Shown piece after piece: positions 45,643 through 64,000 of a DNA stretch of 64,000 bases; positions within the stretch are counted from its first letter, which is position 1, and each line of letters starts with the position of its first letter. A program made the position numbers and the translations under genes. A model generated the notes under the pieces. The model saw only the letters and a program-made list of their open reading frames with translations. It ran no database searches and was not told the DNA's origin. This DNA is from Sulfurovum sp. UBA5198 (GTDB lineage Bacteria > Campylobacterota > Campylobacteria > Campylobacterales > Sulfurovaceae), in assembly GCA_002412865.1 (NCBI GenBank), contig DHVW01000007.1:7806-71805 (forward strand). Direction: 5' to 3'.

Positions 45643-45650
45643 ATAAAAAT

Positions 45651-46250: not shown

Positions 46251-47473
46251 GCCTCTATATAGTCCAAGTCTTTATGGAATGTTTCACGAGTCATATAAAG
46301 CATAATAAAACCAAGTGAAAATACTACTATACCCACAGTTGCACCAGCTAATAATATACCGATGCTTCCTTTTAGGTACATAAAGCTCATGGTTACTGGC
46401 ACTACTGAACCCCTCACAAAATTAGGAACTGTTGTGGCTACTGTGGCACGGATATTCGTCCCAAACTGTTCTGCTGCCATCGTAATAAATAGAGCCCAAT
46501 ACCCGCAAAATAATCCAAGTAAGAACATTGCAAAATAAAACTGATTAGCTCCAGCACCACTAAGCGTATAGTAATAAGCTACACTAGCAGCAGATAGCCC
46601 AAGGAAAAGCATATAAGCTTTTTTACGACTTTGTAGTTTTTGAGATAGATACCCACTAGCTAAATCTCCTACACTTAGCCCGATATAGCAATACATAAGA
46701 GCCTGACCAGCCTTTATCTCACCATCTATATCAAGTGCAACGGCAAATTCTGGCGAGAACATCACAAGTACGCCCACAACATACCATAAGGGTACACCAA
46801 TAAGTATCGCTTTTATATATTTTGCAAAAATCTCTCTATCTTTAAATAACGAGAAGAAATCACCTCGCTTTATTTTATCGCTTTGAGTATGCGTAAACAT
46901 ATCAGATTCGCGAACTTTAAACCTAAGGAATAGTAGTGCAAAACCAAGCAGCCCTCCGAATATATAAGCATTTCTCCAGTCAAAATGAGTGGCTACTATG
47001 TTGGCGGCCACAACACCCAAAACTCCAAAAGCAGCTATCGCCATTACTCCATAGCCCCTAAGGTGCTTAGGCAATATCTCTGCTACCAGTGTAACTCCAG
47101 CCCCGAGCTCACCAGCTAAACCTATGCCAGCTATAAATCTCAAAATTGCGTACTGCTCAACTGTGGTCACAAATGCATTTAGTGTGTTGGCTGCTGAATA
47201 TAGAAGGATGCTAGCAAAAAGCACAGACATTCTGCCTTTTTTGTCACCCATTATCCCCCAAAGTATACCACCAATTAACATTCCTATCATTTGCATATTT
47301 AGAATAATACTACCCCAATGCATGATACCATCTTTGTCAAGCCCAAGCTCTGTAAGACTCTGTACCCTAACCACACCAAAAAGTATTAAATCATAAATAT
47401 CTACAAAATAACCCATCGCTATTACGATCACAGGGAGTGTCAAAACTTGACGCATTATTGAAACTTTATTCAT
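46247..47473 (-). CDS. MFS transporter
   Basis: 408 aa, 12 TM helices. GDKKGRM loop 2-3 motif. Confidence 0.75.
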   Translation of the reverse strand: MNKVSIMRQVLTLPVIVIAMGYFVDIYDLILFGVVRVQSLTELGLDKDGIMHWGSIILNMQMIGMLIGGILWGIMGDKKGRMSVLFASILLYSAANTLNAFVTTVEQYAILRFIAGIGLAGELGAGVTLVAEILPKHLRGYGVMAIAAFGVLGVVAANIVATHFDWRNAYIFGGLLGFALLFLRFKVRESDMFTHTQSDKIKRGDFFSLFKDREIFAKYIKAILIGVPLWYVVGVLVMFSPEFAVALDIDGEIKAGQALMYCYIGLSVGDLASGYLSQKLQSRKKAYMLFLGLSAASVAYYYTLSGAGANQFYFAMFLLGLFCGYWALFITMAAEQFGTNIRATVATTVPNFVRGSVVPVTMSFMYLKGSIGILLAGATVGIVVFSLGFIMLYMTRETFHKDLDYIEA

Positions 47474-48915: not shown

Positions 48916-49044
48916 GCGTGCTACCAGCCTATTATAAATTTATTTTATTTTAACATATTTGGGCTTTGTGACAAGCGTGAAATGCCAAGTAAGCTTTTAG
49001 CTCTTAAACACAATAATGATACAATGGCATATTAAAAAAATGGA

Positions 49045-49500
49045 ATGGCTATGCAAAAATATAAAAAACCAAAACAAAATATATCAAAAAATAAAATAGA
49101 ACCATACGCAACAAACTCTAGCAAAATCAAAGCATTTATTACTGATAATTTTTTACTTATGATGCCAATTATATATATTGTATTTTATATAGTAATGGGA
49201 GGCAGAGAAGAGTTTCGCGACAATTTATTTATCGGATGGATAATGATATTTGCTCCCCTAGTGATTATTCAGTCAATTTTTTTATCAAGAAGCGGTCAGA
49301 CACCTGGCTACAAAGCATATCAAATAAAATTGCTAGATGATATTAGCGGCAAAAAGCCATCATTTCTTGTCGCACTCTTTAGGAGCATATTGGCACTATT
49401 ATCATTTTTTACAATATTTGGTTGGCTAATGATGTTTATGAGAAAAGATAGAAAAACACTTCATGATTTACTTAGCAACACAGCGGTTTACAAAGCATAA
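49045..49500 (+). CDS. RDD-family membrane protein
   Basis: 151 aa, 3 TM helices. GQTPGYKAY and the RKDRKTLHDLLSNT tail are typical of RDD proteins. Confidence 0.55.
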   Translation: MAMQKYKKPKQNISKNKIEPYATNSSKIKAFITDNFLLMMPIIYIVFYIVMGGREEFRDNLFIGWIMIFAPLVIIQSIFLSRSGQTPGYKAYQIKLLDDISGKKPSFLVALFRSILALLSFFTIFGWLMMFMRKDRKTLHDLLSNTAVYKA

Positions 49501-50624
49501 TGAATAGATCATCGTTTGCGATTGTGTGGCTTTTGCGTGGTTACTATTTTTTCTATTTTGCAATGGTCGGTGTATATATAGTTTTTTTACCAAAAATACT
49601 CACAGACCTTGGGTATAGTCCAGCTGAAGTTGGAATAATTTACGCGGCAGCTCCTATGATGAGATTTTTATTGCCATTTGTTTTCCAGCATATTATTGAA
49701 CTTAATTATAAAATTTTTGCTATATCACTTTTTGCTACTCTAATTGCAGTTATTATGTTTTGGTTTTCTATTCATAATTTTTGGAGCTATTTAGCCGTAA
49801 ACATACTTTTTGGTGCAGCAATGGGAATATCTTTGCCTTATATTGAGACTATTGCTCTTGGAATACTGGACAAAACCAAATATGGCAAAGTAAGACTTTG
49901 GGGTTCAATTGGCTTTATGCTTATTGTTATATGGCTAGGTCGCATACTTGACACCGCAGAACAAGGCTTATTATATCTTTTTGCTACTGCACTTCTTACG
50001 CTTTTGCTTGGTATTATGGTTGGCAAATCTGATAACAAACAGTCATATGACACAGAAGATACCAGCTCTTTTTCAATCATAGCCCATGCTCCACTTTGGC
50101 TTTCAATATTACTTATGCAAATAAGCTTTGGTGGTTTTTATAGTTTCTTTACGATATATGAAACAGCACATGGTATCTCTCTTGAGATGAGTAGTTGGCT
50201 ATGGGGATTTGGTGTAATATGCGAAATAGCAATGCTCTATTTTCAAGGTCCATTGCTAAAAAGAAACTTGCTTAATATTATAAAATTTGCTACGCTAGTT
50301 ACAGTATTTAGATGGCTATTATTATATATATTTCCTGATTCAATTGGGACTGCTTTTTTATCACAATCAATGCACGCAATTAGCTTTGCTCTTTATCATA
50401 CTGCAATGATTAGTTATATATACAGTCTATATACCCAAAAAAGACTTGCTCAGCAGTTTTTTCTAGGCATTGGGTTTGGACTTGGTGGTTCGCTTGGTGC
50501 ATATTTAGCTGGCATATTTTATGGGCATAATCTTTTTTTACTTGAATCTATAATAGCTTTATTGGCATTTGCAGTATTATTTTTACCACACAAAAAGGAG
50601 ATGAAAAATGCAAGCCAAATATAA
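49500..50624 (+). CDS. MFS-like transporter (MFS_1_like / PPP-type)
   Basis: 374 aa, about 11-12 TM helices. The ATG overlaps the upstream TAA. Confidence 0.6.
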   Translation: MNRSSFAIVWLLRGYYFFYFAMVGVYIVFLPKILTDLGYSPAEVGIIYAAAPMMRFLLPFVFQHIIELNYKIFAISLFATLIAVIMFWFSIHNFWSYLAVNILFGAAMGISLPYIETIALGILDKTKYGKVRLWGSIGFMLIVIWLGRILDTAEQGLLYLFATALLTLLLGIMVGKSDNKQSYDTEDTSSFSIIAHAPLWLSILLMQISFGGFYSFFTIYETAHGISLEMSSWLWGFGVICEIAMLYFQGPLLKRNLLNIIKFATLVTVFRWLLLYIFPDSIGTAFLSQSMHAISFALYHTAMISYIYSLYTQKRLAQQFFLGIGFGLGGSLGAYLAGIFYGHNLFLLESIIALLAFAVLFLPHKKEMKNASQI

Positions 50625-51183
50625 TACGGCGGTAATATTCGCAGGCGGAAAAAGTAGTCGCATGGGAACAGATAAAGCTCTTTTACCATTTGGTGGCCAT
50701 AATTCAATGGCAGAATACTTATGTCAAAAGCTCACAAAAATATTTCAAAATGTTTATATATCAGCAAAAAGCGATAAATTTGATTTTTCACCAACAGTTA
50801 TTATTGATAACTATGAGCAAAGTTCTCCAATGGTTGGACTAGTATCTATATTTGAGACGATTGATTACGATGAGATATTTATAATAAGCGTCGACTCTCC
50901 ATTAATTACACAAGAAATTATTGATATGTTATACAAAAATGCAAGTGAGCATATAAATGCAGATGCGATTATCGCAACCAGTCCTGATGGTATAGAGCCT
51001 ATGTGCGGTATATATAGACGAACTATCTATCCTCTGGCAAAAAAGTATTTAAATGATGATATGCATCAGCTAATGAAGCTTTTAAAAAATAGTACCACAG
51101 AGTATCTAGAGTTTGGTTCAAATAAAGAGTTTTTAAATCTAAACTCTCCAGACCAATATGAGATAGCAATTGCTAAATATTAA
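50608..51183 (+). CDS. mobA: molybdenum cofactor guanylyltransferase
   Basis: 191 aa. VIFAGGKSSRMGTDKALLPFGG and a later SVDSP motif. Confidence 0.8.
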   Translation: MQAKYNTAVIFAGGKSSRMGTDKALLPFGGHNSMAEYLCQKLTKIFQNVYISAKSDKFDFSPTVIIDNYEQSSPMVGLVSIFETIDYDEIFIISVDSPLITQEIIDMLYKNASEHINADAIIATSPDGIEPMCGIYRRTIYPLAKKYLNDDMHQLMKLLKNSTTEYLEFGSNKEFLNLNSPDQYEIAIAKY

Positions 51184-52079
51184 TCTCTTTTTTCGTCTAA
51201 AATAGTTTTTATCATTTTTTTGGCAAAGAATGTAAATTTGTCAAAAAGTTCACTTCTAAGCTTATCTTTGTGGTGAATCATATGCAAATCTCTTTTGCAT
51301 TCAAACTTTTTAATATTCGCTCTATGTAGAGTGCCATCCAAAATATCTTTTTCAACTGCAAGCTGAGATAGACAGGCTAAAGTATCGCTGCCTTTTAATA
51401 CACTTTTGATTGATTCAGTATGTCCAAGCTCTAAAAATATATTCAAATTATTACATTTATCTTTGATATGCTCCAAAAACATCTCTCTAGTGCCACTACC
51501 TTTTTCTCTCAAAACCCACTTATGATCACTTAAGTCATTCATGTTGCATGGTGTACTAAATTTATCTGTTGAAGAAACTACTAATAATTCATCAACTCCG
51601 ATTATCTCTTTGGCAAGTTCTGAGTCACTCACTCCACCCTCTACAAAGCCTATATCAATTTGACCATCTTTAATCATTTCAATTATTGCTTTTGTATTTC
51701 CTTCTTTGAGGGAAATCTTTACATCAGGGTACTCGCTCATATAGTTACAGATAATTGTTGGCATCATATAGTCAACAATTGTTGTGCTAGCACCCACTCT
51801 AATTATGCCTTTGTTTGGTGAGAATTGGAACTCATTTTGGACATCAATTATTTTTTTATAAAGAGGTTTGATTTCTTCATAAAAAGCTCTACCTACTTCG
51901 TTTAGTATTAATCGTTTGCTTATTCTATCAAATAGCTGTTTACCAAGCGTCGTTTCTAGCTCTTTTATTGACATAGATACAGCTGATTGACTAAGTCCCA
52001 TATCTTTAGACACAGAAGTCAGATGCCCTACTGATACTACATTCAAAAAAATCTCAATTTGTCTTAGTGTTATGCTCAC
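51180..52079 (-). CDS. LysR-family transcriptional regulator
   Basis: 299 aa. N-terminal wHTH (LRQIEIFLNVVSVGHLTSVSKDMGLSQSAVSMSIKELE) plus a substrate-binding domain. Confidence 0.85.
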   Translation of the reverse strand: MSITLRQIEIFLNVVSVGHLTSVSKDMGLSQSAVSMSIKELETTLGKQLFDRISKRLILNEVGRAFYEEIKPLYKKIIDVQNEFQFSPNKGIIRVGASTTIVDYMMPTIICNYMSEYPDVKISLKEGNTKAIIEMIKDGQIDIGFVEGGVSDSELAKEIIGVDELLVVSSTDKFSTPCNMNDLSDHKWVLREKGSGTREMFLEHIKDKCNNLNIFLELGHTESIKSVLKGSDTLACLSQLAVEKDILDGTLHRANIKKFECKRDLHMIHHKDKLRSELFDKFTFFAKKMIKTILDEKRD

Positions 52080-52150
52080 TTATTTACCTACTATATTAAA
52101 TTTACACGATTATAACACGATTATTCTTAAATATTACTTCTTAACTATTA

Positions 52151-53713
52151 TTAGTTGATAATTTTTCTTTTTCTATAACTTAATGCTTCCAATATATCAA
52201 CTCTTAATATATCATGATTTCCATTTATATCAGCTATTGTCCTCGCTACTTTTTTTATGCTTGCAATGCTCCTATGAGATAGTGCGAATCTACTCATTGC
52301 ACTCTCCAGTACAGTTAAGGCGTCATCTTTAATCCTGCAATACAAATCTATCTCTTCTTCTTTTAATTTACCGTTTAACCTTTTTTGACCTCTGGCTTTT
52401 TGTGCTTTAAATGCCTTAAGTGTTAGCTTTCTCATCTCTATAGAGCTAATGTCTGATTTATCGCTAGTTTCTACCTCCTGCATAACTACAAAGAGATCTA
52501 TCCTGTCTAAAAATGGGTCACTAAGTCGGTTTTGATATCTAACTATCTCTGCTTCGCTACATCTACACTCGTTCTTTTTTGATAATAAATTACCACATGG
52601 GCATGGATTCATCGCTGTAACAAACATGATATCAGCATCATACGCAATCTTTGCATTTACTCTGGCGATATTCACCTTTCTGTCTTGAAGTGGCTCTCTC
52701 ATCGCTTCTAATATTGGCTTTGCAAAGTGTGGTAACTCGTCAAAAAATAGAATACCTTTGTGTGCTAATGCTACCTCTCCTATTTTGGCTCCACTTGAGC
52801 CTCCCCCAAAAACAGAGGCACTGGTGGCAGTATGATGAGGACTCCTTAGTGGTCTAGCGGCATCAAAAGTGGGTAGCTGTCCATCTAAAAACTGATGTTT
52901 TGCGATTGAAAGCATCTCTAGCTCTTCAAGTGGTGGTAAAATATCTCGCAATCTTTTGGCAATCATGCTTTTACCGCACCCAGGGCTTCCCTCCATCAGA
53001 AAATTATGCATACCAGAAGCTGCTATCACTGAAGCTCTTTTTGCTACACTTTGCCCCTTTACATCAGAAAAATCAGACTCAATAGAACTTTTAGAATAAT
53101 ATGAAATGTCATCTATTGTGATTTTATCAGCGTTATATTCAAATCGTTGCGTTTGTGCATTAAACTCTCCAGTTTGTATAATAACAATAGCTTCACTAAG
53201 CGTATCCACTCCCACAAAATCAACTCCAGATATGTAACTAAGATGGCTAATGGCATCATTTGGGACTATTGCTTTACTAATTAACCCTTGTTCTTTGAGT
53301 GATAAAATAAGTGGGAAGAGCATAGTGCTACTTTTTATCTTCCCATCAAGTCCTAATTCGCCAAAAACAAACAAGCCTTCATAATCAAAACTAGATTTAT
53401 TCAATGCAATCAATAGTGCCAACGGCAAATCAAAATGAGTACCATTCTTCTTTATGTCACTTGGGCTTAGATTGACTGTAATTTTTAGAGGCGGGAATGT
53501 AAAGTTGTTTGTTAGTAGTGCTGACTTTACCCTTTCTCTTGATTCTTGGATATCACTACTAGCAAGTCCAACTACTGAAAAACCAGGTAAACCCTTTGTG
53601 AATGTTGCTTCAACCTCTATAACTTTAGCTTTTAATCCATCAAGCGTTGCACATGCTAATCTATTTATAGTTGCTGTTTGTTCAATTTCTATTTTATTGT
53701 CTTCTATTTTCAT
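52151..53713 (-). CDS. comM: YifB/ComM-family Mg-chelatase-like AAA+ ATPase
   Basis: 520 aa. Lon-protease-like N-domain, Walker A GSPGCGKS, Walker B FFDELP, and a Cys cluster CPCG...CRC. Confidence 0.9.
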   Translation of the reverse strand: MKIEDNKIEIEQTATINRLACATLDGLKAKVIEVEATFTKGLPGFSVVGLASSDIQESRERVKSALLTNNFTFPPLKITVNLSPSDIKKNGTHFDLPLALLIALNKSSFDYEGLFVFGELGLDGKIKSSTMLFPLILSLKEQGLISKAIVPNDAISHLSYISGVDFVGVDTLSEAIVIIQTGEFNAQTQRFEYNADKITIDDISYYSKSSIESDFSDVKGQSVAKRASVIAASGMHNFLMEGSPGCGKSMIAKRLRDILPPLEELEMLSIAKHQFLDGQLPTFDAARPLRSPHHTATSASVFGGGSSGAKIGEVALAHKGILFFDELPHFAKPILEAMREPLQDRKVNIARVNAKIAYDADIMFVTAMNPCPCGNLLSKKNECRCSEAEIVRYQNRLSDPFLDRIDLFVVMQEVETSDKSDISSIEMRKLTLKAFKAQKARGQKRLNGKLKEEEIDLYCRIKDDALTVLESAMSRFALSHRSIASIKKVARTIADINGNHDILRVDILEALSYRKRKIIN

Positions 53714-53778: not shown

Positions 53779-54834
53779 TTACATATCCCTGGCGAGTGTA
53801 AATAATTTTGTATTATTTTGTGCAAAATCTATACATCTATTGCAAATAACTTCGCCATGCTTTTGAGGAAAATCGACTCTGCACTCTTTGCAGGCTACAA
53901 AATGATTTTCAATTAACACTTCAGCTCTACCAAATGCAAGTGAAACCATATCAAAATTATCAAAGCTACTAATAGACTTTGGCTTACATATATCATCACA
54001 TATTCCACATGCTATGCATCTAGTGGGCTGAAACAGTATTTTTGTCTTTTCCGCACCAAAAAATAGTGCATTTGTTGGACAAAATTGCAAACAATCTCCA
54101 CAATTCGTACAAGAGTTAAAATCTATCTTTTTATTGCTTAGAAAACTGAATTTACCTTCAATAACTTGGGTCGTGAAATTTTCAATAGAGTATTTAAGTG
54201 AATTTTGCAACACAAGCCTTGATTTTGGCAATGTCTCCTTTGGGTCAAATAATTTATCAAACTCACTACTATCATCACCAAGTGCTTGTGCTTCAGTAGC
54301 AAAACTAAATATAGCATCCCTTCTGCTTATCTCTGGCTTGGTCTCTCTTGACTCAATCTCACTTATGCCAATTGGGGCTAAAAATCTATTTGCCTCACTC
54401 ATCGTTGCTCTAATTTGAGCCTCTACCTTGCCACCACAATTAATCACTTCACATGAGCTACAATGTGACATATCAAGCGTTACACTTTTCTCTCTTAGTC
54501 CTAGTGAAATTAAATTTTCACATCCAAAAATGCTCAAGCATTGACCTAAGTTTTTACACGATAATACCAAATCTTTATCAAGTCCACTTTTCAATATAAA
54601 TGATATTGGGTCAAACTCGCTATTTGAAAAAGTAGAGGTCGGACATGATCCGATGCATGCATTACAATCAATACAAACTGTGCTATCTAATGCTATTCGT
54701 TTTGCATGAGAAAGTGCAAGTGCATCAGCTGGGCAAGCCTCTATGCAGATACTGCATTCATTATACAAATACTCTGTTCTGAGGCATTTTAATGGATCAA
54801 TAGATATTTTCGCATTTGAACTAAGCAGACTCAT
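53779..54834 (-). CDS. polyferredoxin-like 4Fe-4S protein with C-terminal CxxC...CxxC ribbon (paralog of 14531-15634)
   Basis: C-x9-CSICIEACP, CIDCNACIGSCP, LSC-x5-C...HCSSCE, CTNCGDCLQFCP, CIACGICDDICKP, CKEC...CNRC. The ATG at 54834 (MSLLSSN...) is preferred, because the ORF-track start adds a hydrophobic leader overlapping the TorD-like gene. Confidence 0.7.
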   Translation of the reverse strand: MSLLSSNAKISIDPLKCLRTEYLYNECSICIEACPADALALSHAKRIALDSTVCIDCNACIGSCPTSTFSNSEFDPISFILKSGLDKDLVLSCKNLGQCLSIFGCENLISLGLREKSVTLDMSHCSSCEVINCGGKVEAQIRATMSEANRFLAPIGISEIESRETKPEISRRDAIFSFATEAQALGDDSSEFDKLFDPKETLPKSRLVLQNSLKYSIENFTTQVIEGKFSFLSNKKIDFNSCTNCGDCLQFCPTNALFFGAEKTKILFQPTRCIACGICDDICKPKSISSFDNFDMVSLAFGRAEVLIENHFVACKECRVDFPQKHGEVICNRCIDFAQNNTKLFTLARDM

Positions 54835-55429
54835 TTGTATTCTCCACAACCATATTGCTATAATCTTCAAGCATAAAATCAATAGTAAAATCAGACAAGT
54901 CACTATAAAATGGGTTGTCACTCATCTCTTTTATTGCAATTAAATATTGTGGTATCCAAGCCATTAGATGTTCAGTATAAAACTTCATTTGTGCTTTTGT
55001 GTCTTGTTGCAAAATAAGTTTTTGCATAAATCCAAATTCAATAGCTATATGGTCAGGCACATGATGATGTGACGCCTCTAAGTTTAAATCATATCCATGA
55101 TTTACATAAAATTGAGTAACTGGGTTTTGAAGTCCCACAAGTATCTCATTTTTAGCATCAATTGCAGATGATTCAATCGGGTGGTTATTCATCACAAATA
55201 GCGAATTATAGGCAATACTAAGCTCTCTTAATGTGCTCTGCTCGTCGCCACTGTGTAAAAAATCAAATGCTCCATCGCCTATTGTTCTTAATAGTTCATC
55301 ATTGGCTTTTAGCTCTGTGAATAGCTTTTCGCTTATCTCTGAACTGTAAATTCTTGATAAAAATGCGTAAATATATGCTCTTATTTTATTGTCCACTATA
55401 GACTCCTTTTCTCTAGAAAGAATACCCAA
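54821..55429 (-). CDS. TorD/DmsD-family redox-enzyme maturation chaperone
   Basis: 202 aa. PDHIAIEFGFM motif. Helical. Confidence 0.7.
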   Translation of the reverse strand: MGILSREKESIVDNKIRAYIYAFLSRIYSSEISEKLFTELKANDELLRTIGDGAFDFLHSGDEQSTLRELSIAYNSLFVMNNHPIESSAIDAKNEILVGLQNPVTQFYVNHGYDLNLEASHHHVPDHIAIEFGFMQKLILQQDTKAQMKFYTEHLMAWIPQYLIAIKEMSDNPFYSDLSDFTIDFMLEDYSNMVVENTNESA

Positions 55430-55507
55430 ATATTATATATATGAGATAAAAATATAGACTATATTGTGTCACAATGTACTATATATTTTTTCTCAAAAGA
55501 GATGCTT

Positions 55508-55960
55508 TTACAAGCACCCTTTAAAGAATGATTTTCCTCCAGCAGCTGGAGCTTCGAAATGTGAAGCTACGATAGTATTCGCACCTTCATCGAAGTCACC
55601 TTTGATAGTAACTTCATTTTTATTAATACCTTCTTCAAGCATTTTTGCTGTATCAATTTTAGAAGAGTCAATGTTGTAATATTTCATATCGTCATGTACA
55701 AACAATACTAACTCCATCTTCTCCTTGTCTCCAAATTCCCATTTTTGATTACAATCGCCTTCACCACATACAACACTTTCCATGCGACAATCTGCGAACA
55801 TACCTTCTTCGGCACACCATTTAGTTGTAAGAAAACCTTTTTTCTCAAATGTGCCATTTGCATCAGCTGATGCATTTGTCTCATTTGAATCGCCTTTTCC
55901 TTTATTGCAACCTGCTAGGATTAATCCTGCAAGCAATGCAGTTAAAACTAATTTTTTCAT
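55508..55960 (-). CDS. Cys-rich periplasmic lipoprotein of unknown function within Mo-operon 2
   Basis: 150 aa. Lipobox LILAGC. Additional Cys in WCAEEGMFADCRMESVVCGEGDC and a C-terminal GCL. Start overlaps the gamma gene stop by 4 nt. Confidence 0.5.
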   Translation of the reverse strand: MKKLVLTALLAGLILAGCNKGKGDSNETNASADANGTFEKKGFLTTKWCAEEGMFADCRMESVVCGEGDCNQKWEFGDKEKMELVLFVHDDMKYYNIDSSKIDTAKMLEEGINKNEVTIKGDFDEGANTIVASHFEAPAAGGKSFFKGCL

Positions 55961-57183
55961 TTTTCTACCTCCGCTTTTAGAGTTTTGAGATACGCTACAG
56001 CGTCGTTTATACTTTTATCATCAGTCATCATTGGTGGCATTGTTGATGTTCTTTTGCCTGTTTTTGCATCCAACTCATACCATTTGAAATTTTTATGTGC
56101 ATTTCTATTATACCCTGGAACTATAACCGCACTTGGGTCTTTGATAGATTCAGCCAAATATGCACTAGTTGTATATCCACCAATATTTTTAAGGCCTGGA
56201 GCCATATATGGAGATGACGCTACTTTTGTAGCACTTGTTGTATGACAACTCACACACATAGCCTCTACTTGCACCTGGCCAGCTTTAGCGTCACCTTTGG
56301 GTTTGCTCGTAAGCTCAGCTATTAGTGCCTCGCCTCCGCTTTTACCTTGAAGTTTAACTGCAGTCCATGAAGATAGGTTTTTTACACCACCACGATTATA
56401 TTTTGAGCCGTCCCAAATAGCAAATGCAACAGGTACAGCACCAGAACTAGCACTTAAACTTTGAGCAATTACAGCTGTCCATTTTTTCGTTTTAGCATCA
56501 TATGTCATGCTCATTCCGGACTTGTCGCTACCATCTTTAATCTCAGTTAGTGATCTAAAACCTTCAGATATAAACGCTTTGTGATACTGTTTGCTAAGTT
56601 TAGCTATTGCTGCTCTATTTTTCTTTAGATCCTCACCAAATGCATTTACCATATTTGTAGCAAGTTGGCTTGCTACATCTTTGTTTCCATTTGGTTCAAA
56701 ATATGCTGGGATAGATTTTGCAATATGAACAACAACAGGTCTGCCATCACTGCCCATACCAATATATGGTAATTTTTTAGGGTCGCTATAATTCACAGGA
56801 ATCTGTGTGGCAAAACCATCAGCATATGCATCTGATGCATTTTTTGCCATTGTATTATTTGTAGCATCGCTCCAAGTTAGTTTAAATGCGATAGTCGAAC
56901 CGCTATAAACTGCTTGAATTTGTGCCATTTTAGCTTTAGCGTCGCTATTTACAGCGTTACCTTTTTTGTCATTAAGCTTAATTGTAGTCTGTGGATAAAG
57001 AACAATCGAAGTTGGTTTTGAACCACTCCACATACTGCTACTTGTTGAAACTGAAGCCAAATTTATGCTTCCAACTTTAGATGCAGTTATCACGCCACTT
57101 GGAGTTACAATAGGTTTAGCAAAAGCTACTGTAGCCAAACTGGTGGCTACTAAAAGTGATTTTGTTATATTACGCATGTGCAT
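55957..57183 (-). CDS. gamma subunit: EB_dh-like (type II DMSO-reductase heme-b subunit) domain fused to a C-terminal monohaem cytochrome c
   Basis: 408 aa. Sec signal ending VAFA-KP. N-terminal ~290 aa in the gamma-subunit position. C-terminal CVSCH haem-c motif with a downstream MPPM (Met ligand candidate). Confidence 0.65.
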   Translation of the reverse strand: MHMRNITKSLLVATSLATVAFAKPIVTPSGVITASKVGSINLASVSTSSSMWSGSKPTSIVLYPQTTIKLNDKKGNAVNSDAKAKMAQIQAVYSGSTIAFKLTWSDATNNTMAKNASDAYADGFATQIPVNYSDPKKLPYIGMGSDGRPVVVHIAKSIPAYFEPNGNKDVASQLATNMVNAFGEDLKKNRAAIAKLSKQYHKAFISEGFRSLTEIKDGSDKSGMSMTYDAKTKKWTAVIAQSLSASSGAVPVAFAIWDGSKYNRGGVKNLSSWTAVKLQGKSGGEALIAELTSKPKGDAKAGQVQVEAMCVSCHTTSATKVASSPYMAPGLKNIGGYTTSAYLAESIKDPSAVIVPGYNRNAHKNFKWYELDAKTGKRTSTMPPMMTDDKSINDAVAYLKTLKAEVEK

Positions 57184-58339
57184 TCCCCTCTGTTTTATTT
57201 CCTTCGCCGTGTGGCTTCTCGTCTACGAATGGTAGTGAAAAATCTGCTGTAAATTTACCTTTTGAATATCTATCATCAATTGGTGCCAATGGATTTTTAT
57301 TTCCACTTGCTTTTGCAACATCTTGATAATAGTTCGTATCAAGTCTAAACATATCAGCATGATGATAAGCTATCAATATATCCATCAATTCACTCTCACC
57401 AGTTTTTGCTCTTTTCTCTTTTTCGCTCTTTATAGTCTTAATGGCTGCATGAACTGGCTTACCAAATAGCAATTCAAGTTCTGTCATTGGAACCCTTTGG
57501 CTTCCTTCGATTATTCTACCTTCTGCATCAAATTTAGCTGGTGCTTCTGTTGGTGGAACATAATATACATTTGGTTGAGTTCCATAATCACTTCTTAGTG
57601 GCAGTGCAACTTTATATTTTGTAACCAATTTATATACTTGACCTTCTGTGTCATCCAAGAAACCTACAAAACGAATTCTACCAACACACTGTTGTGCACA
57701 CGCTGGTGGAAGACCTTGTTCTATTCTAGGGAAACAAAGAATACATTTTTCACTTTTTGAAATCTTAGAGTTGAAATATATTTTTTTGTATGGACAACCT
57801 GCTATACAATATCTATACCCTTGACATCTATCCAAATCCACTAGAACAACGCCATCTTGATCTCTTTTGAAGATTGCGTCTCTTGGACAAGCACTCAAAC
57901 AGCCAGGGTTTGTACAATGGTTACAAATTCTAGGCAAATAGAAGAAGTAGTTATCGCTAGGGAAGTTTCCTTTGCCAACATCTTCGTCCCAGTTTGGTCC
58001 CCATGTTGGTGTACTATCAGCGTGGAATGCTGGTGTAGCATCACCTTTTGTATAGTTATATGTTCCTACATCTTCATAGTTAAAATCCCAAGGCACACCA
58101 TAATCAGCTTCGATATTAGGTATTACGCCCTCTTTAAGATCACCAGCAGCATCAAATCCACCACCTAGATCCATCCAGTTTTTAGGGTATCCAGTACCAG
58201 GATATGTTTCCACATTATTCCAGTACATATACTCTCTACCATTTCTATTTGTCCATTGTGTTTTACACGCAACAGTACATGTTTGGCATCCGATACATTT
58301 GTTCAGATCCATTACCATTGCTAATTGTCTTTTTGACAT
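57170..58339 (-). CDS. NarH-type four-cluster Fe-S beta subunit of a type II Mo-bisPGD enzyme
   Basis: 389 aa. MVMDLNKCIGCQTCTVACK...YWNNVE, CNHCTNPGCLSACP, CQGYRYCIAGCPY, CILCFPRIEQGLPPACAQQC. Confidence 0.85.
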   Translation of the reverse strand: MSKRQLAMVMDLNKCIGCQTCTVACKTQWTNRNGREYMYWNNVETYPGTGYPKNWMDLGGGFDAAGDLKEGVIPNIEADYGVPWDFNYEDVGTYNYTKGDATPAFHADSTPTWGPNWDEDVGKGNFPSDNYFFYLPRICNHCTNPGCLSACPRDAIFKRDQDGVVLVDLDRCQGYRYCIAGCPYKKIYFNSKISKSEKCILCFPRIEQGLPPACAQQCVGRIRFVGFLDDTEGQVYKLVTKYKVALPLRSDYGTQPNVYYVPPTEAPAKFDAEGRIIEGSQRVPMTELELLFGKPVHAAIKTIKSEKEKRAKTGESELMDILIAYHHADMFRLDTNYYQDVAKASGNKNPLAPIDDRYSKGKFTADFSLPFVDEKPHGEGNKTEGNAHA

Positions 58340-58351
58340 ATCTATTTCCCC

Positions 58352-61258
58352 TTACGCTTTCTCTATATTTATTGCGCCATCATACGCATACTGATTTCCG
58401 TCCCAAAGACCGCCAAATTTCAAGTGACCCCAGCCATCTGCCATCTCAAGCAAGTTTAGTGCTGTTGGCACACACTCATTGTGACCTTTGTTAAATCTAT
58501 ACATATTTGGCTCCCAACCATGCTCCATCACTAGACCATCTGGAGGACAAGAGCTTGAAACTTTTGCCATTACAAAGAACTCACTAAGAGTATTAAATAC
58601 TCTCATCATATCACCATCTTTGATATTCATTTTGGCAGCGACTAGATTATTAATCTGACCATATGGCACACCACCTCTTTGTAGTCTTTGAAGTATTCTG
58701 CTCGTTTTATAGTTTGAGTGAATAGACCATCTAGCATGTGGTGTCATTAGCATAAATGGATATTTTTTAGGGTCATTTGGTCTAATTCCCTCCATTCCTG
58801 TGTTCGTATTTGCACCCATTTGAATATAAAGAGGATGATCCACATAGAATGTTTGTCTTCCACTTACAGTTTCAAATCTCTCAAATTTATAAAGCATATT
58901 CTCGAAAGTATTATACGGTCTATCACTATACAATGGAGACGACTTACCAGCTTTTTCATTAATTTGCAAGAATCCACCAGCTTTATACATCTTCTCAGCA
59001 GTCCATGGCTCATACTGTACACATTTTTCTAGTGCTGCGTCAAGTGCCATTTTATCTGTTCCCAAATACGGCTCCATAGCAGTTTCGCTCTCTTCATCTG
59101 TATTTGTAAACTCTTTATATACTATTGATAGGTCATGGAAACCTGGTTTTGCATATTTTTTATCGTCTTTTACTTTTGCTTTAGAGATATTTTCTGGTTT
59201 ATTAGCTATCTCTTCAAGTTTTTTTGCAATAAGTCCCATCATGCTCCACTCATCCATCGCTTCACCTACTGGTTTTAGGTTAGCTACTGGTTGAGCAAGA
59301 TTTGTAAATCTATGGTATCCTGGGCTAGTTCTAAGGTCATGAACCTCATAGTGAGATTTCGCAGGAAGCAAAATATCTGCATAACATGCAGCTTCACTCA
59401 TCATGTAATCCACATACGCAAAATATTTAATCTTTCTTAGGAAAGCTTCTCTATATTCACTACCTTTGTTTCTTCTAAATCTAGAATCAGCAATGATAAG
59501 TGCAACTTCAGGCTCCCACCATGGTTTATTTACATTTCCATGTTTACTAGCATCGTTTATTTTGCCATCTTTACCAGCTGCGAGCATAGAATTGATAACT
59601 TCCATATAATCTTTTTTGCTCATACCATTTTGAGCTCTTTTTACATCTTCATCACCAAAGTATTTATCAAAAGTCTTCATGCCATCACCAAATACAAACT
59701 CACCAACAAATCCAGAACCAAATCTAGCAGCATATTTACCACTAAATCCACCTAGAACTTCTAGTCCACTTAGTTGGAATTCATTTTCAGTATTAAGTCC
59801 GCCATATGGCCCAAGTCTACCAGTAAGTCCACAGATTGAAGCAATATTCCATACGCTCATTAGACCATTAAAATATTTATTTAGTGAAAATCCTGTTGTG
59901 ATAGATACTACTTTTGGTAAAGCTATATCACGAGCAAGCATTCTAACTGTATCTGGGTGTACACCTGTGATTTTTTGAGTCTCTTCAGGAGAAAATCTCT
60001 CGATATTCTCTTTTAGCATTTCAAATACAGTAGTTACCTCTACATCTTCGCCATTTAATAGCTCAACATCCCAGCTACCTTCAAGCTCAGGGTCAATCCC
60101 AAGCTCAGCAAGACGAATAGATTTATGCTCACTACCTTCAGTACCTGGCATAAGAGCGATTTCGCCACCATTATTGTTCATTACATAGAACTCTTCATGG
60201 AATTTTTCAGCATCTTCAGGTTTTGCAGGTTTTTCCACATCACTTCTTCTTAAAAGTTTTTTAGACTCTTTCATTACTAGGAATGGAAGATCTGTAAATA
60301 GTTTCATAAACTCAGGCTTATAAAGCTTCTCTTTTAATATCTCATGAATAACTGAAGCAGCAAGTATATTATCACTACCAGCTTTGATAGGTATCCATAT
60401 ATCAGCTGATTTTGCAGAACCATTAAACTCTGGCGTGATTACATAAACTTTAGCACCATTATATTGACCTTCCCACACGAAGTGAGCATCAGGTATTCTA
60501 CTTACAGATGGATTTCCACCCCAGAATACTGCTGTATCTACATTATACATAAAATCATAAGTACAGCCAACATTCCCCTCGCCATATGCAACAGCAGCAC
60601 CAGAGAACATATCCCCTAGGTATGATGATGGATAGATACGAGATGAACCTAACATTGTAGAAAATCGTAGTGGTCCTCCTCTTCTACCTTCTGTTAGTAG
60701 TCCAGTACCAGCATGAACTGTTAGTTTTGATGGACCTTTTGCAGGATCAACCATCACATCCCAGATTTTTTGAGCTACTTCACCAGCTGCGTCATCCCAG
60801 CTTAGTCTCTCCCACTTACCCTCACCTCTTTCTCCAACTCTTTTCATTGGATAAAGAAGTCTATTTTTTTCATACATTACTTGTGAATGCTGTACGCCTT
60901 TATTGCATCCTCTTGGATTAAAATCAGGAATTTTAGGGTTAATAGATGGGTATCTAGCCGATTGATTCTCTCTAGTTACTACGCCGTTGTGAGACCAGAT
61001 TTCCCATGCACAGTTACCTTGACAGTTTACACAGTGATATGCAAAACCAGTATCCTCTATATTTCCACGCATAAATCCAAATTCATTTCTATACATATCT
61101 TCTGTATATGTACCGTTTGGATAACCTTCAAGTCCCGTCTCTATTTTCATAGCATCAGTTTTAGCGAACAATGCACCTTGAGAGGCGACCATTGTAGCTG
61201 TTACAGTAGAAAATTTAAGAAAATTTCTTCTTTTTTCGTTTGTCATATTTTTTGTCAT
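58352..61258 (-). CDS. Tat-exported NarG-type (type II DMSO reductase family) molybdopterin catalytic alpha subunit; substrate unknown
   Basis: 968 aa. Twin-arginine EKRRNFLKFSTVTA. FS0 motif H-x3-C-x3-C (YHCVNCQGNCAW). Candidate Asp ligand region SSYLGDMFSG. Size is like SerA/ClrA/DdhA/EbdA/PcrA rather than NarG/NxrA. Confidence 0.85.
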   Translation of the reverse strand: MTKNMTNEKRRNFLKFSTVTATMVASQGALFAKTDAMKIETGLEGYPNGTYTEDMYRNEFGFMRGNIEDTGFAYHCVNCQGNCAWEIWSHNGVVTRENQSARYPSINPKIPDFNPRGCNKGVQHSQVMYEKNRLLYPMKRVGERGEGKWERLSWDDAAGEVAQKIWDVMVDPAKGPSKLTVHAGTGLLTEGRRGGPLRFSTMLGSSRIYPSSYLGDMFSGAAVAYGEGNVGCTYDFMYNVDTAVFWGGNPSVSRIPDAHFVWEGQYNGAKVYVITPEFNGSAKSADIWIPIKAGSDNILAASVIHEILKEKLYKPEFMKLFTDLPFLVMKESKKLLRRSDVEKPAKPEDAEKFHEEFYVMNNNGGEIALMPGTEGSEHKSIRLAELGIDPELEGSWDVELLNGEDVEVTTVFEMLKENIERFSPEETQKITGVHPDTVRMLARDIALPKVVSITTGFSLNKYFNGLMSVWNIASICGLTGRLGPYGGLNTENEFQLSGLEVLGGFSGKYAARFGSGFVGEFVFGDGMKTFDKYFGDEDVKRAQNGMSKKDYMEVINSMLAAGKDGKINDASKHGNVNKPWWEPEVALIIADSRFRRNKGSEYREAFLRKIKYFAYVDYMMSEAACYADILLPAKSHYEVHDLRTSPGYHRFTNLAQPVANLKPVGEAMDEWSMMGLIAKKLEEIANKPENISKAKVKDDKKYAKPGFHDLSIVYKEFTNTDEESETAMEPYLGTDKMALDAALEKCVQYEPWTAEKMYKAGGFLQINEKAGKSSPLYSDRPYNTFENMLYKFERFETVSGRQTFYVDHPLYIQMGANTNTGMEGIRPNDPKKYPFMLMTPHARWSIHSNYKTSRILQRLQRGGVPYGQINNLVAAKMNIKDGDMMRVFNTLSEFFVMAKVSSSCPPDGLVMEHGWEPNMYRFNKGHNECVPTALNLLEMADGWGHLKFGGLWDGNQYAYDGAINIEKA

Positions 61259-61270
61259 ATTCTATCTCCC

Positions 61271-62341
61271 TTATCTTCTGACTGGTAAATTCATATCATT
61301 ACCCCAAGCATCCCAGCTACCTGTGAATACTTTTACATTTTGGTATCCCAAGTTACGCAAAGCAGTTATTGCGTGAGAGCTTCTACCTGTCCCTACTTGA
61401 CAATAAGCATATATTGTTTGATCTTTTCTTATGCCATTCTTGTCAAATACCTTTTGCATCTCTGCATTTGATTTGAAAGATTTTTTATTATCTTCATCAT
61501 AAAGATTTTTCCACTCTATAAATTTAGCACCAGGAATATGTCCGCCTCTAGCAACATTGTCTTTCTTGTCTTCACCTATAATCTCAGTCATGCCTCTACT
61601 ATCAATAATTACAAATTTAGACTTTGCACCATTTTTAGCTATATCTGCTTGAGCTTTAGCGACTTCTTTTTTTTCTGCAATATATTTTTTGTCAATATTT
61701 TTTGGGTCAATTACATAATTACTAGCTGCATGTTTAGTCTCTTCTCCTGGTTGCATTATAGTTGTTGTTTCTAGTTTTGCTACCTGAGCTTTAATAGCTT
61801 CTTCATTGGCTTTTAGTTTTGCAACTTGAGCTGCATCTTTAGTTGCTTTAATAGTTTTCTTAAGTGCTTTTCTTTGTTTTTTAAGGGTTTCTATTTTCAC
61901 TTGTACAGGATCTACTAACTTGATACCTTCATATCCACCATTAAGGATTTTAATATTTTTATGGCCATAACTCTCAAAGAAACTATGTACTCCAGTAGCA
62001 TTTGGTCCACGGTAGTTATCATAAGCTATGATTGTTTGATCGTTTCTAATGCCTTTGCTTCTGATATACTCCTGTGCTTCTTTTGGACATTGATACAGAG
62101 GTGCACATTTCATATTTCCCATTTTATCAGAGTGATGCAAGTGGTGAGCACCCATACTTACTGAGCCTTTTATGTGTCCATTGGCATACGCATCTTCATC
62201 GTCACCTGATACAAAAATATAATTCTTATTCCCTATCAGTTTAACTGCTTCAGCAGGTTCAATAAGTTGTACTGGTGCAGCCCAAAGTGAGGTTGCAACC
62301 AATAAACTACTGAGCAAAACTGTACTTTTAACTCTTCTCAT
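61271..62341 (-). CDS. secreted tandem-rhodanese sulfurtransferase with coiled-coil linker
   Basis: 356 aa. Signal peptide ...SLWA-AP. The N-terminal rhodanese domain lacks the catalytic Cys (AYDNYRGPNATG). A Lys/Ala-rich linker follows. The C-terminal domain has the active loop CQVGTGRS. Ends 12 nt before the alpha subunit ATG. Confidence 0.8.
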   Translation of the reverse strand: MRRVKSTVLLSSLLVATSLWAAPVQLIEPAEAVKLIGNKNYIFVSGDDEDAYANGHIKGSVSMGAHHLHHSDKMGNMKCAPLYQCPKEAQEYIRSKGIRNDQTIIAYDNYRGPNATGVHSFFESYGHKNIKILNGGYEGIKLVDPVQVKIETLKKQRKALKKTIKATKDAAQVAKLKANEEAIKAQVAKLETTTIMQPGEETKHAASNYVIDPKNIDKKYIAEKKEVAKAQADIAKNGAKSKFVIIDSRGMTEIIGEDKKDNVARGGHIPGAKFIEWKNLYDEDNKKSFKSNAEMQKVFDKNGIRKDQTIYAYCQVGTGRSSHAITALRNLGYQNVKVFTGSWDAWGNDMNLPVRR

Positions 62342-62631
62342 TCGTTTTCCTTATAAATTTTATCACCCTATGAAATACTGATTTTATACTGTACAGCTCG
62401 GGTTTAACAGGTTATTATAGAGTGACTTCTCTTAAACTAAAATAAAAACAAATTATAATTTAAAAATATGTTTTACTTATGTTAAAAAATAGCTATTTCT
62501 TTATTTGATATAAATTTTAAATATTAGCATTATCTGTAAAATATATTAAAGTAAATATTTTTATAGTAATTTGCAGAGTTTTAATCATAAAAATGCTATA
62601 TTCGCACAAATAATGAAAAAGGCTACAAGAA

Positions 62632-63198
62632 ATGACACGAGATAATGCAGTCGATATGCTAATGGAACAAGAGCTTGATATAAAGCTAGTGCGAGAGATA
62701 TTTGATGAATTCAAAGACAATATGGAAATTGTAGGCATGGTAGCCATGAATGTATCTCGTAAATGCAGTGTATACGACAAAGAGCAAGGCAAAAGTGATA
62801 ATATGATAGCCTTGCTAGAAGAGCTATCAACCGTAGATGACATGGGGGCTAGATGGGCAGTTGCTAAAAACCATTTTACTTCAGTAGAGATACTAGAAAG
62901 ATTAGCAAATGACGAAATTAACCTTGTTAGAGCTTTAGTAGCCACAAATCCAAACACGCCAGTAGCAGTTCTAAACAAGCTATTCTCAGACGAAAAAATA
63001 GTCAGAGATGGCCTATCTGGCAACGCAAATACGCCTCTTAAGTTACTCAAAGTATTAGCAAGTGATAGCGATAAAATGGTTAGGCTAAGAGTAGTAGATA
63101 ACCCTTCCGCCACAAAAGAACTATTAGCTACAATGTTAGAAGATACAGAAAAAGATATACTCAAAGCAATTGAAATCAGACTAGGAGAGATGGCATGA
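62632..63198 (+). CDS. leucine-rich-repeat-variant (LRV/HEAT-like) repeat protein
   Basis: 188 aa. Repeats of about 24 aa: VRALVATNPNTPVAVLNKL, VRDGLSGNANTPLKLLKVL, VRLRVVDNPSATKELL. The antisense 232-aa ORF is low-complexity and rejected. Confidence 0.55.
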   Translation: MTRDNAVDMLMEQELDIKLVREIFDEFKDNMEIVGMVAMNVSRKCSVYDKEQGKSDNMIALLEELSTVDDMGARWAVAKNHFTSVEILERLANDEINLVRALVATNPNTPVAVLNKLFSDEKIVRDGLSGNANTPLKLLKVLASDSDKMVRLRVVDNPSATKELLATMLEDTEKDILKAIEIRLGEMA

Positions 63199-63569
63199 AA
63201 CAGGGCAAAAAACACGAAGATAGACAGAGCGAATATGAAACGCTAGAAAAACAACTTTTATCACTATTTCATAGTGGTATTTATATATCATCGTTTGATG
63301 TAGTTCAGATAGGTAAAGCTATAGGACTTGATATGCCTTTTAAAGATAGGGATGTGCTATTAAAATCACTATTTGCTCAAGCAAAAAAAGAGGACAAATT
63401 CTCTGAAGCGCTCAGACATATCGGACTATATATTAGAGAGAGAGCAAATAAATATACAGTACTAGGAAATGAATACCCTCATGCAAGACCACTAATTACC
63501 TCATGGCTACAAAAGGCTAAAGCTACAGATGCACTGCTCAAAAGAGAAATGGCGAGGGATATACATTGA
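63195..63569 (+). CDS. hypothetical protein, paralog of ORF 14079-14534
   Basis: 124 aa. Shares SGIYIS and scattered identities in an ungapped alignment with the 151-aa ORF. Overlaps both neighbours by 4 nt. Confidence 0.45.
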
Positions 63570-64000
63570 ACACAGAGGATGTTACCAAAATACTCACAGC
63601 AGTAACCTATCCAGGTATTGAGAGGGACATAGTATCGCTAAAACTTATAGAAGATATAAAAATAGAAAATAATAAACTCGCAATCAAGCTATCCATATCA
63701 AATGAAGTAGCCTATGAGCAGATAGAAAAACAGATTCACGAGCTACTAAAGTCTAGTTTTGACTCAACTGAAGTTACATTTATCTCCAAAAAAACCAAAT
63801 CCACTAGTTATGGTTCATCGGCCAAACCAAACAACAGAGCTCCTTATGCAAAAAATATAATCGCTGTCACAAGTGGGAAAGGTGGAGTTGGCAAAAGCAC
63901 AGTAAGCGTTAATCTTTCAGTTTCTCTAGCACAGAAGGGCTACCGTGTAGGTCTGCTAGATGCCGATGTTTATGGACCCAACACTCCTAGAATGCTAGGT
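63566..64000 (+). CDS. mrp: Mrp/ApbC/NBP35-family Fe-S cluster carrier ATPase (partial; runs off the window)
   Basis: TTG at 63566 is the first start codon after the in-frame stop at 63518. [25 protein letters not shown] (MIP18-like N-domain), then deviant Walker [13 protein letters not shown] and LLDADVYGP. Confidence 0.8.

Follow-up and report, generated by a model that had tools for sequence, protein, structure and literature searches.

A conserved Campylobacterota gene cluster for a periplasmic type II molybdoenzyme with a secreted rhodanese, a candidate sulfur-compound:cytochrome c oxidoreductase

Gene content and conservation of the cluster

The window analyzed here is a stretch of 64,000 nt from Sulfurovum sp. 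UBA5198 (assembly GCA_002412865.1, contig DHVW01000007.1, positions 7,806–71,805), to which all coordinates refer unless another locus is named. Positions 53779–62341 carry, on the minus strand, seven co-directional open reading frames (ORFs) for a predicted periplasmic enzyme with a molybdenum-bis(pyranopterin guanine dinucleotide) (Mo-bisPGD) cofactor and for its partner proteins. An earlier note, made from the sequence alone, had delimited these seven genes, and all of them prove to be intact at the same positions.

The first gene encodes a secreted tandem rhodanese (61271–62341) with two PF00581 domains and a Sec-type signal peptide, and it ends 12 nt upstream of the gene for the alpha subunit (58352–61258; 968 aa; PF00384 and PF01568), just as the earlier note had pointed out. 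After another gap of 12 nt follows the gene for the NarH-type beta subunit (57170–58339; PF13247), which overlaps by 14 nt with that for the gamma subunit (55957–57183; PF09459 EB_dh and PF00034 cytochrome c), and the latter overlaps by 4 nt with the gene for a small secreted protein of 150 aa without a family match (55508–55960). A gap of 78 nt precedes the gene for a cytoplasmic chaperone of the TorD/NarJ family (54821–55429; PF02613), which overlaps with the gene for a cytoplasmic polyferredoxin matching Fer4 families (53779–54834; open frame to GTG 54921). The genes mobA (50608–51183) and moaC (40618–41091), which the earlier note had linked to cofactor supply, are present elsewhere in the window.

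One genome per species was scanned for close relatives of the alpha subunit, which gave 34 loci in Campylobacterota (Sulfurovaceae, Hydrogenimonas, Sulfurimonadaceae, Sulfuricurvum and Arcobacteraceae). The seven genes stand in identical order wherever the contig reaches, and this arrangement is conserved far beyond chance; downstream neighbors vary by lineage. The nearest locus is that of a metagenome-assembled genome (MAG) from the Frasassi sulfidic cave, with an alpha subunit 96% identical, and the window is accordingly assigned to a cave-dwelling, Sulfurovum-like organism. Alpha is an uninterrupted ORF in all of the loci that hold the entire gene (27/27), and an apparent disruption at one locus (L032) is a run of masked N rather than a real lesion. 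Intact copies are found in the cultured hosts Nitrosophilus alvini, N. kaiyonis, Hydrogenimonas cancrithermarum and Sulfurospirillum arcachonense, so experiments are feasible.

The conserved unit exceeds the seven genes. Three divergent upstream genes belong to it (62632–64000 and beyond, plus strand): an LRV (leucine-rich repeat variant) alpha-solenoid protein (62632–63198; PF01816), a conserved 124-aa protein without a family match (63195–63569), and the N-terminal part of an Mrp/ApbC/NUBPL Fe–S cluster carrier ATPase with a P-loop (63566–64000, running past the window end). The trio is found wherever a locus extends far enough upstream. The intergenic region between the two gene sets (62342–62631) has a conserved TATAAT and the ribosome-binding site TAAGGA. 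The earlier note was right about the seven genes and stopped short of these three; it was silent also on the Cys tail of the small protein, on the unusual rhodanese loop and on a published NarGHI label for the cluster, all of which are described below. The tail and the loop are features without an earlier description.

The same ten genes are carried by Nitratiruptor sp. SB155-2 (L044, AP009178.1), where the loss of one base from a run of A (GCAAAAAACTGG) splits the alpha gene (4746–7654 of that locus) into ORFs of 693 and 301 aa. This copy could be a pseudogene, contain a phase-variable tract or reflect a laboratory mutation. Disruption in related genomes, which the earlier note had counted as evidence against its reading, is therefore found in this frameshifted alpha gene and in a degenerate paralogue described below, whereas the remaining complete copies are intact.

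The enzyme subunits and their relationship to known systems

The alpha subunit has the Tat motif RRNFLKF and the FS0 ligands H75-x3-C79-x3-C83 and C118, and its Asp216 (in SSYLGDMF) is aligned with the Mo ligand Asp170 of PcrA and is a putative Mo ligand; what the earlier note had read from this protein holds in each of these respects. TIGR03479 matches it end to end with 722 bits, under the cut-off of 984.75, which is consistent with an outlier within the type II enzymes that belongs to a separate clade. The narG model gives 208 bits (cut-off 1084), and the PhsA and TtrA models give 102 and 64 bits (cut-offs 694 and 1750). Among solved structures, PcrA (4ydd/5e7o; E about 1e-100) and EbdA (2ivf) match best, and the aromatic gate of PcrA (F164/Y165) corresponds to P210/S211. 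When 1.8 billion representatives at 50% identity were searched, the whole family fell into a single cluster, with few intermediate relatives.

The position of alpha was examined in a neighbor-joining tree with 100 bootstraps, in which the named references are Ideonella ClrA and Haloferax periplasmic NarG (both from annotated plasmids) and Azospira PcrA (from a printed alignment), and in which SerA, DdhA and EbdA are represented only via unnamed cluster representatives. The family groups with the representative P0121 in 100 bootstraps, with P0127 added in 95, with P0124 added in 78 and with P0125 added in 100; the resulting group is sister to the ClrA clade (98/100), which is monophyletic on its own (ClrA, P0126 and P0132; 100/100). 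Grouping with PcrA or periplasmic NarG occurs in 0 of 100 bootstraps. Identity of alpha is 33–35% to ClrA, 31% to PcrA and 30% to periplasmic NarG. P0125, the next relative out, has a classical A-B-D-C operon without a rhodanese. By this phylogeny, of the kind that the earlier note had called for, the alpha family together with three uncharacterized relatives is a clade of its own, outside any characterized clade with the same operon composition; placement among the type II enzymes and away from NarG, as had been argued from size and architecture, is borne out.

The beta subunit matches TIGR03478 (510 bits, above the cut-off of 480.7), in agreement with the earlier assignment, and gives 255 bits against a cut-off of 524 with the narH equivalog model. 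It is of the NarH type with four Fe–S clusters, and its Cys groups include CQGYRYCIAGCP, the pattern of a 3Fe-4S site. It has no signal peptide and is probably exported jointly with alpha.

In the gamma subunit, a Sec signal peptide is followed by an EB_dh domain for haem b and, at the C-terminus, by a cytochrome c domain with a single haem (C310-x2-CH, Met382); the fused cytochrome c had been recognized in the earlier note. PF09459 matches with 60 bits (cut-off 33), whereas TIGR03477 reaches 79.5 bits where its cut-off is 169.85. The residues Met108 and Lys201, which ligate haem b in EbdC, have exact counterparts in Met143 and Lys268, and such ligands are typical of a high-potential haem, which suggests the same property here. 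The GMGS motif, the Lys, the CxxCH and the MP motif are kept in all aligned homologues, and gamma carries the fused c-type haem domain in every aligned family member. The potential of a Met/Lys haem b is +256 mV in ethylbenzene dehydrogenase (EbDH) and +324 mV in dimethyl sulfide (DMS) dehydrogenase, and cytochrome c has been proposed as the partner (PMC8840923). A high-potential exit from haem b to haem c would allow either a dehydrogenase or a reductase for a couple above about +250 mV.

In two publications, the cluster was labeled NarGHI, with the gene after narH taken as narI (PMC4674564, PMC4288042). This label is wrong, because the gene downstream of 'narH' encodes a soluble fusion of EB_dh and cytochrome c. 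In full-text literature searches the cluster was found neither characterized nor named, appearing only as 'NarGHI/Nar'; a review of the evolution of the DMSO reductase superfamily does not mention Campylobacterota, papers on sulfur disproportionation and on Sulfurovum transcriptomes mention rhodaneses and molybdopterin enzymes but not this gene set, and a paper on Nitratiruptor SB155-2 omics under Cd and Cu does not mention the cluster. NarGHI does share the alpha/beta superfamily branch (FS0, Asp ligand, four-cluster beta) and a chaperone of the NarJ/TorD type. However, alpha is here exported by Tat and about 270 residues shorter, and the cluster lacks NarI and narK. NarG and periplasmic NarG were thus rejected on the basis of the hidden Markov model (HMM) scores, the Tat signal, the absence of NarI and the phylogeny.

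The closest overall likeness is to ClrABC of Ideonella dechloratans, to which SerABC selenate reductase and DdhABC dimethyl sulfide dehydrogenase are related. Shared features are a Tat-exported alpha with a His/Cys3 FS0 and an Asp ligand, a NarH-type beta, a Sec-exported EB_dh gamma with haem b, a chaperone of the TorD family, and the design of a soluble periplasmic complex that exchanges electrons with c-type cytochromes. In contrast to ClrABC, the genes run A-B-C-x-D instead of A-B-D-C, the gamma subunit carries a fused cytochrome c domain, and the cluster adds the rhodanese, the Cys-tailed small protein, the polyferredoxin, and the LRV, 124-aa and Mrp proteins, with no cld. PcrAB (PDB 4ydd, 5ch7) is alignable over 880 residues and has the FS0 motif and the Asp ligand position in common with the enzyme; it differs in that PcrA groups with periplasmic NarG, that its aromatic gate is absent from this alpha subunit, that cld is missing here, and that PcrC has multiple c-type haems and does not belong to the EB_dh proteins (PMC8840923). 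The absence of cld, asserted in the earlier note for the window, extends to every fetched locus: tblastn with Ideonella Cld gave no match in the window or in any of these loci, which do not cover whole genomes. Chlorate and perchlorate reductase were rejected as candidates because cld and the PcrA gate residues are absent and alpha lies outside their clade. The enzyme class is known; what is new is the combination of this clade with a gamma fused to cytochrome c, an obligatory rhodanese, a small protein with a Cys arm and the LRV/Mrp trio.

These relationships bear directly on an unlikely alternative, namely that the enzyme would be a respiratory reductase for a high-potential oxyanion (selenate, chlorate or nitrate), taking bc1/cytochrome c electrons through haem c and haem b as SerABC and ClrABC do, with the rhodanese and the Cys-rich protein handling a reactive product, e.g., selenite or Se(0). 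The sister relationship to the ClrA clade speaks for such an enzyme, and a Met/Lys haem b equally fits the reduction of couples above +250 mV. The two publications cited above read the cluster as a nitrate reductase, and it is the only one reported for the Zeitz genome (PMC4674564); 'narG' transcripts are recorded at vents dominated by Campylobacterota, but they are not attributable to this cluster. However, the low identity to ClrA, the narG score far under its cut-off, the absence of any bootstrap grouping with PcrA or periplasmic NarG, the missing gate residues and the missing Cld all argue against it. Moreover, nitrate is below detection in the Frasassi cave waters, home of the closest relative (PMC4288042), Nitratiruptor SB155-2 and the Frasassi bins, which are among the hosts, already have Nap, and the conserved linkage to rhodanese, YeeE and soxYZ genes, described in the following section, would stay unexplained.

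The secreted rhodanese, the Cys-tailed protein and linked sulfur genes

The two rhodanese domains are joined by a Lys-rich linker. The N-terminal domain has a conserved HHLHHSD motif and C-x6-C, and the catalytic Cys (Cys314) of the C-terminal domain lies in a seven-residue loop, YCQVGTGRSS (CX5R), with a one-residue insertion in alignment with Thermus and Mycobacterium rhodaneses. Both motifs are well conserved among the 34 aligned homologues: the loop reads C[QHMN]VG[AVT]GR in 33 and the N-terminal motif reads HHLHH[SAG][DN] in 29. In rhodaneses, the size of the atom or anion that can be bound is considered to depend on loop length, and a loop of this length would be suited to a tetrahedral adduct, for example a thiosulfonate. 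A role as a cofactor-sulfuration factor was rejected, since the Sec signal peptide places the action of the protein in the periplasm.

In every family locus with upstream sequence, the rhodanese gene lies directly upstream of alpha. A comparable linkage is seen in the three nearest outgroup lineages (L039, L040 and L043; bootstrap support of the clade 78–100). In L039 the rhodanese gene is again directly upstream of alpha, whereas in L040 and L043 it is near alpha, with a YeeE-type Sulf_transp gene between the two and directly before alpha. Neighbors in L039 include soxY (its product ending in GGCGG), soxZ, two MBL-fold genes and thioredoxin genes; in L040 the cluster contains an ArsR-family regulator fused to a rhodanese domain; and in Nitratiruptor SB155-2 the module is flanked by DsrE and DUF302 genes. 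Because the rhodanese linkage is found in L039, L040 and L043 as well, the association with sulfur-handling genes predates the Campylobacterota family. The hint of a sulfur substrate that the earlier note had taken from the rhodanese is strengthened by these rhodanese, YeeE and soxYZ linkages.

L039 (7901–14465 of that locus; JGI metagenome 3300033146) is the closest paralogue, with an alpha subunit 51% identical, and looks degenerate. Its module is directly downstream of the soxY–soxZ, MBL-fold and thioredoxin genes and of DUF302 genes, and it lacks the TorD and polyferredoxin genes. The FS0 His/Cys ligands of alpha, the catalytic Cys of the rhodanese (now Ser) and the Cys tail of the small protein have all been lost. 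With the FS0 ligands missing from its alpha and a system of degenerate appearance, L039 is not clean evidence for SoxY as the carrier.

The small secreted protein has four invariant Cys residues (C49, C58, C65 and C70) and an almost invariant C-terminal tail, PPPPKKSFFKGCL (APPPPKKSFFKGCL), whose penultimate residue is a Cys (Cys149). Across 66 sequences with a mean column identity of 42%, the tail KSFFKGCL is conserved to at least 90%. The earlier description as a Cys-rich lipoprotein applies to this genome and is confined to Sulfurovaceae; elsewhere the protein has a plain signal peptide and the lipobox is absent. Homologues fall into 114 clusters, and all organism-named ones are from Campylobacterota. 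No match was obtained to Pfam, NCBIfam or PDB sequences, or to SoxY, DsrC or TusA models. In the AlphaFold2 model (mean predicted local distance difference test score, pLDDT, 78), the beta-barrel core is confident and the tail is of low confidence, so the protein is predicted to be a secreted beta-barrel with a flexible C-terminal tail. Foldseek with this model returned weak, non-significant OB-fold matches (best, CcmE 2kct, E = 0.14); therefore, no function can be claimed from the fold.

SoxY (GGCGG) and DsrC (penultimate Cys) both have a Cys close to the C-terminus on a flexible arm, and the penultimate Cys of the small protein recalls the arms of these sulfur-carrier proteins. Membership in the SoxY family was rejected, as there is no Pfam or NCBIfam match and the tail is KSFFKGCL rather than GGCGG. 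At the level of design, the cluster may resemble SoxYZ–SoxCD (and also DsrC–DsrAB) in combining a Cys protein with a flexible arm, an oxygen-adding Mo enzyme and a c-type cytochrome acceptor, and the nearest paralogue of alpha, that of L039, adjoins soxYZ. The parts, however, are not homologous: SoxC is a Mo enzyme of the sulfite-oxidase family, and SoxY is Ig-like, whereas the small protein has weak OB-fold matches.

The pairing of a rhodanese with a Mo enzyme also recalls Sud–PsrABC of Wolinella succinogenes, a working analogy in which a periplasmic sulfur-binding protein of the rhodanese type is encoded with a Mo-bisPGD enzyme that it would serve. The analogy opens the alternative of a periplasmic reductase for elemental sulfur (S0), polysulfide or tetrathionate, with a Sud-like rhodanese that would hand sulfane sulfur to the Mo site and electrons passing inward through gamma, which is judged distinctly unlikely. 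What keeps it alive is the biology of the hosts. Nitrosophilus alvini and Sulfurospirillum arcachonense, both with the cluster, reduce S0, as does Hydrogenimonas thermophila, a congener of the Hydrogenimonas strains with the cluster. S. arcachonense is described as sulfur-reducing yet was reported to be without Psr, Phs and Ttr (PMC4794192), and Nitratiruptor SB155-2, with its frameshifted alpha, is the one listed relative without S0 as an acceptor (PMC7728183, table). These isolate correlations are few and tentative, however. A Met/Lys haem b with a His/Met haem c is expected near +250 mV, about 500 mV above the polysulfide couple. The Asp ligand and NarG-type fold also set the enzyme apart from the known S–S reductases, which are on a different branch of the family. 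Psr has an NrfD anchor and receives quinol electrons, whereas the operon has a high-potential haem b and haem c and no quinol-oxidizing NrfD/PsrC anchor, a separate Psr-like operon with NrfD being present at 14079–21442; a further difference from Sud is the two-domain architecture of this rhodanese and its CX5R loop. Assignment to the Psr/Phs/Ttr-type reductases was rejected on the absence of NrfD from the operon and on PhsA and TtrA scores below their cut-offs.

The rhodanese loop invites one more alternative, a highly improbable one, in which the enzyme would act on a different chalcogen or metalloid species of the kind frequent in sulfidic waters (arsenite or thioarsenate, for instance) or on organosulfur, e.g., DMS. 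The CX5R motif has the loop length of Cdc25/Acr2-type enzymes, which bind tetrahedral P or As oxyanions and not a bare persulfide, according to a loop-length rule for rhodanese, Cdc25 and Acr2 that is said to have been set out by Bordo and Bork in 2002. The fusion of an ArsR-family regulator and a rhodanese in L040 points the same way, but ArsR-family regulators sense persulfides too, and none of the flanks showed ars, arr, aio or arx genes. On the organosulfur side, the type II enzymes include DMS dehydrogenase, whose gamma has identical haem ligation (PMC8840923), and IMG names relatives 'dimethylsulfide dehydrogenase'. Such names are transferred automatically, however, and DMS oxidation would leave the rhodanese, YeeE and soxYZ genes without a role.

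Proposed function and accessory genes

Taken with the sequence features above, the cluster would most likely encode a sulfur-compound:cytochrome c oxidoreductase, a periplasmic type II Mo-bisPGD enzyme, soluble or lipid-tethered, that acts as a dehydrogenase, an assignment to which roughly even odds (about 0.5) are given. The dehydrogenase direction is favored because of the linkage to sulfur genes, the absence of cld, and the sulfidic and nitrate-poor habitats. In the proposed mechanism, the secreted rhodanese would take sulfur from thiosulfate or polysulfide, and the small beta-barrel protein, via its tail Cys, would carry the sulfur species or present it to the enzyme. Alpha would then catalyze oxygen-atom transfer at the Asp-ligated Mo, converting sulfite to sulfate, or carrier-bound sulfane sulfur to thiosulfonate. 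Electrons would pass from Mo via FS0 and FS1–FS4 of beta to the Met/Lys haem b of gamma and its fused haem c, and from there through the periplasmic cytochrome c pool to a cbb3 oxidase or to denitrification enzymes. In the cytoplasm, the TorD-like protein and the polyferredoxin would mature the cofactor-loaded alpha–beta complex before Tat export, and the divergent LRV, 124-aa and Mrp products would probably join in that maturation.

A more specific version is possible but doubtful: a Sox-independent periplasmic sulfur oxidation of a new design, in which the CX5R rhodanese loads sulfane sulfur onto the tail Cys or unloads it, the NarG-type enzyme oxidizes the protein-bound sulfur in successive transfers of oxygen atoms, and the electrons go to cytochrome c. 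In that case it would be, to our knowledge, the first NarG-type enzyme with a protein-bound substrate. That L039 has lost the rhodanese Cys and the tail Cys together with the FS0 ligands of alpha counts in favor of the general sulfur-compound reading, although it is a single case.

Several further observations weigh against the oxidation of sulfur compounds. Nitrosophilus alvini carries the cluster and grew only with H2 as the electron donor (PMC7728183); if the enzyme is sulfur-oxidizing, this activity did not sustain growth of the organism in the conditions used. Most of the named isolates with the cluster oxidize H2 and reduce S0, and classical Sox-type sulfur oxidizers did not appear among the named hits. 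The haem potentials are deduced from the axial ligands, the carrier role of the tail is drawn by analogy to SoxY and DsrC with Foldseek giving no significant match, and the tree is a neighbor-joining one with named references limited to ClrA, PcrA and periplasmic NarG.

Campylobacterota dominate sulfidic caves, springs, aquifers and hydrothermal vents, and metabolic models already count the cluster as a membrane-bound nitrate reductase (NarGHI). Because that label fails every test made, predictions of nitrate respiration and the counts of 'narG' in vent metatranscriptomes may be inflated. The Sulfurovum populations of the Frasassi cave, including the closest relative of the window, were reported to be without a Sox system, and the cluster is a concrete, testable candidate for the processing of thiosulfate or S(0) in them. 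If the carrier idea is true, the enzyme would join SoxCD and DsrAB as a third class acting on protein-bound sulfur, the known chemistry of NarG-type enzymes would be widened, and the cluster would be a functional analogue of SoxYZ–SoxCD built from unrelated parts.

The chaperone matches PF02613, in agreement with the earlier note, whereas the TorD model NF003442 and TIGR03482 are both under their cut-offs. The polyferredoxin was likewise correctly recognized by its Fer4 families, and its start is corrected: homologues align only from residue 26–33 of the longer frame, so that the start is most likely ATG 54834 and not GTG 54921. It is likely a NapF-like maturation factor. A polyferredoxin paralogue (31% identity, full length, E = 4e-44) follows the TorD gene of a second Mo operon, and because the same pair ends this unrelated Mo-enzyme operon in the window, TorD and the polyferredoxin are assigned as maturation factors. 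Participation of the polyferredoxin in the periplasmic electron chain was rejected on the same ground and on its lack of a signal peptide.

The second molybdoenzyme operon is Psr-like and occupies 14079–21442 on the minus strand. It encodes an Fe–S subunit (20651–21442), a membrane anchor of the NrfD/PsrC type (19704–20651), an unusually long Mo-bisPGD subunit of 1116 aa (16343–19693) for which the best models, DmsA and PhsA, score far below cut-off, a TorD-like chaperone (15644–16267), the polyferredoxin paralogue (14531–15634) and a 151-aa protein.

Among the divergent upstream genes, the LRV gene is found in 30 of 30 family loci with upstream sequence, and the gene for the 124-aa protein, which overlaps with both of its neighbors, in 29; Nitratiruptor has both. 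The 124-aa protein has no Pfam or NCBIfam match. The Mrp gene occurs in 23 loci as well as in L044; PF10609 matches its L028 homologue (E = 2e-95), and the translation in the window has an FeS_assembly_P-like N-terminus and the P-loop GKGGVGKST. In the archaeal periplasmic Nar cluster of Haloferax mediterranei pHME322 (L038, 10663–12802), the TorD gene is followed by hypothetical, HEAT-repeat and P-loop NTPase genes, the last two of which parallel the LRV and Mrp genes, with no sequence similarity detected.

In the intergenic region, the TATAAT lies at 62414–62419 (minus strand) and resembles a −10 element, with TTTAAG 11 nt upstream. It is kept in 7 of 9 aligned intergenic regions from five lineages and is TACAAT or TAAAAT in the others, five of the six positions being invariant across all nine. 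A generic promoter and terminator scan of the sequence did no better than with shuffled sequence. Rfam gave no match, and hence none to a Moco riboswitch.

Farther out, the flanks show some recurrent genes. A protein with a Pfam match to DUF3373, presumably located in the outer membrane, is encoded beyond the Mrp gene in 15 loci (e.g., L028, 2315–3829). A large protein containing DUF302 recurs in Nitratiruptor (L044, 465–1370), Sulfuricurvum, a MAG of Sulfurimonadaceae and the L039 paralogue, with further coordinates at L023 (425–1174) and L015 (136–552). Elsewhere in the window (37737–38897 and 39031–40470), a gene for an oxidoreductase of the pyridine nucleotide-disulfide type, weakly similar to type III sulfide:quinone reductase, lies next to ccoG, an accessory gene of cbb3 oxidase; oxidoreductase and ccoG together are consistent with a microaerophilic sulfide oxidizer.

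In 12 other Sulfurovaceae loci, prfA follows within about 200 nt after the polyferredoxin gene. In the window and in L001, about 8 kb lie between the two genes (region 44554–53713 of the window), with comM/yifB, a LysR regulator, mobA, two MFS transporters, an RDD protein and an amino-acid carrier. This stretch is thus a lineage-specific insertion or rearrangement.

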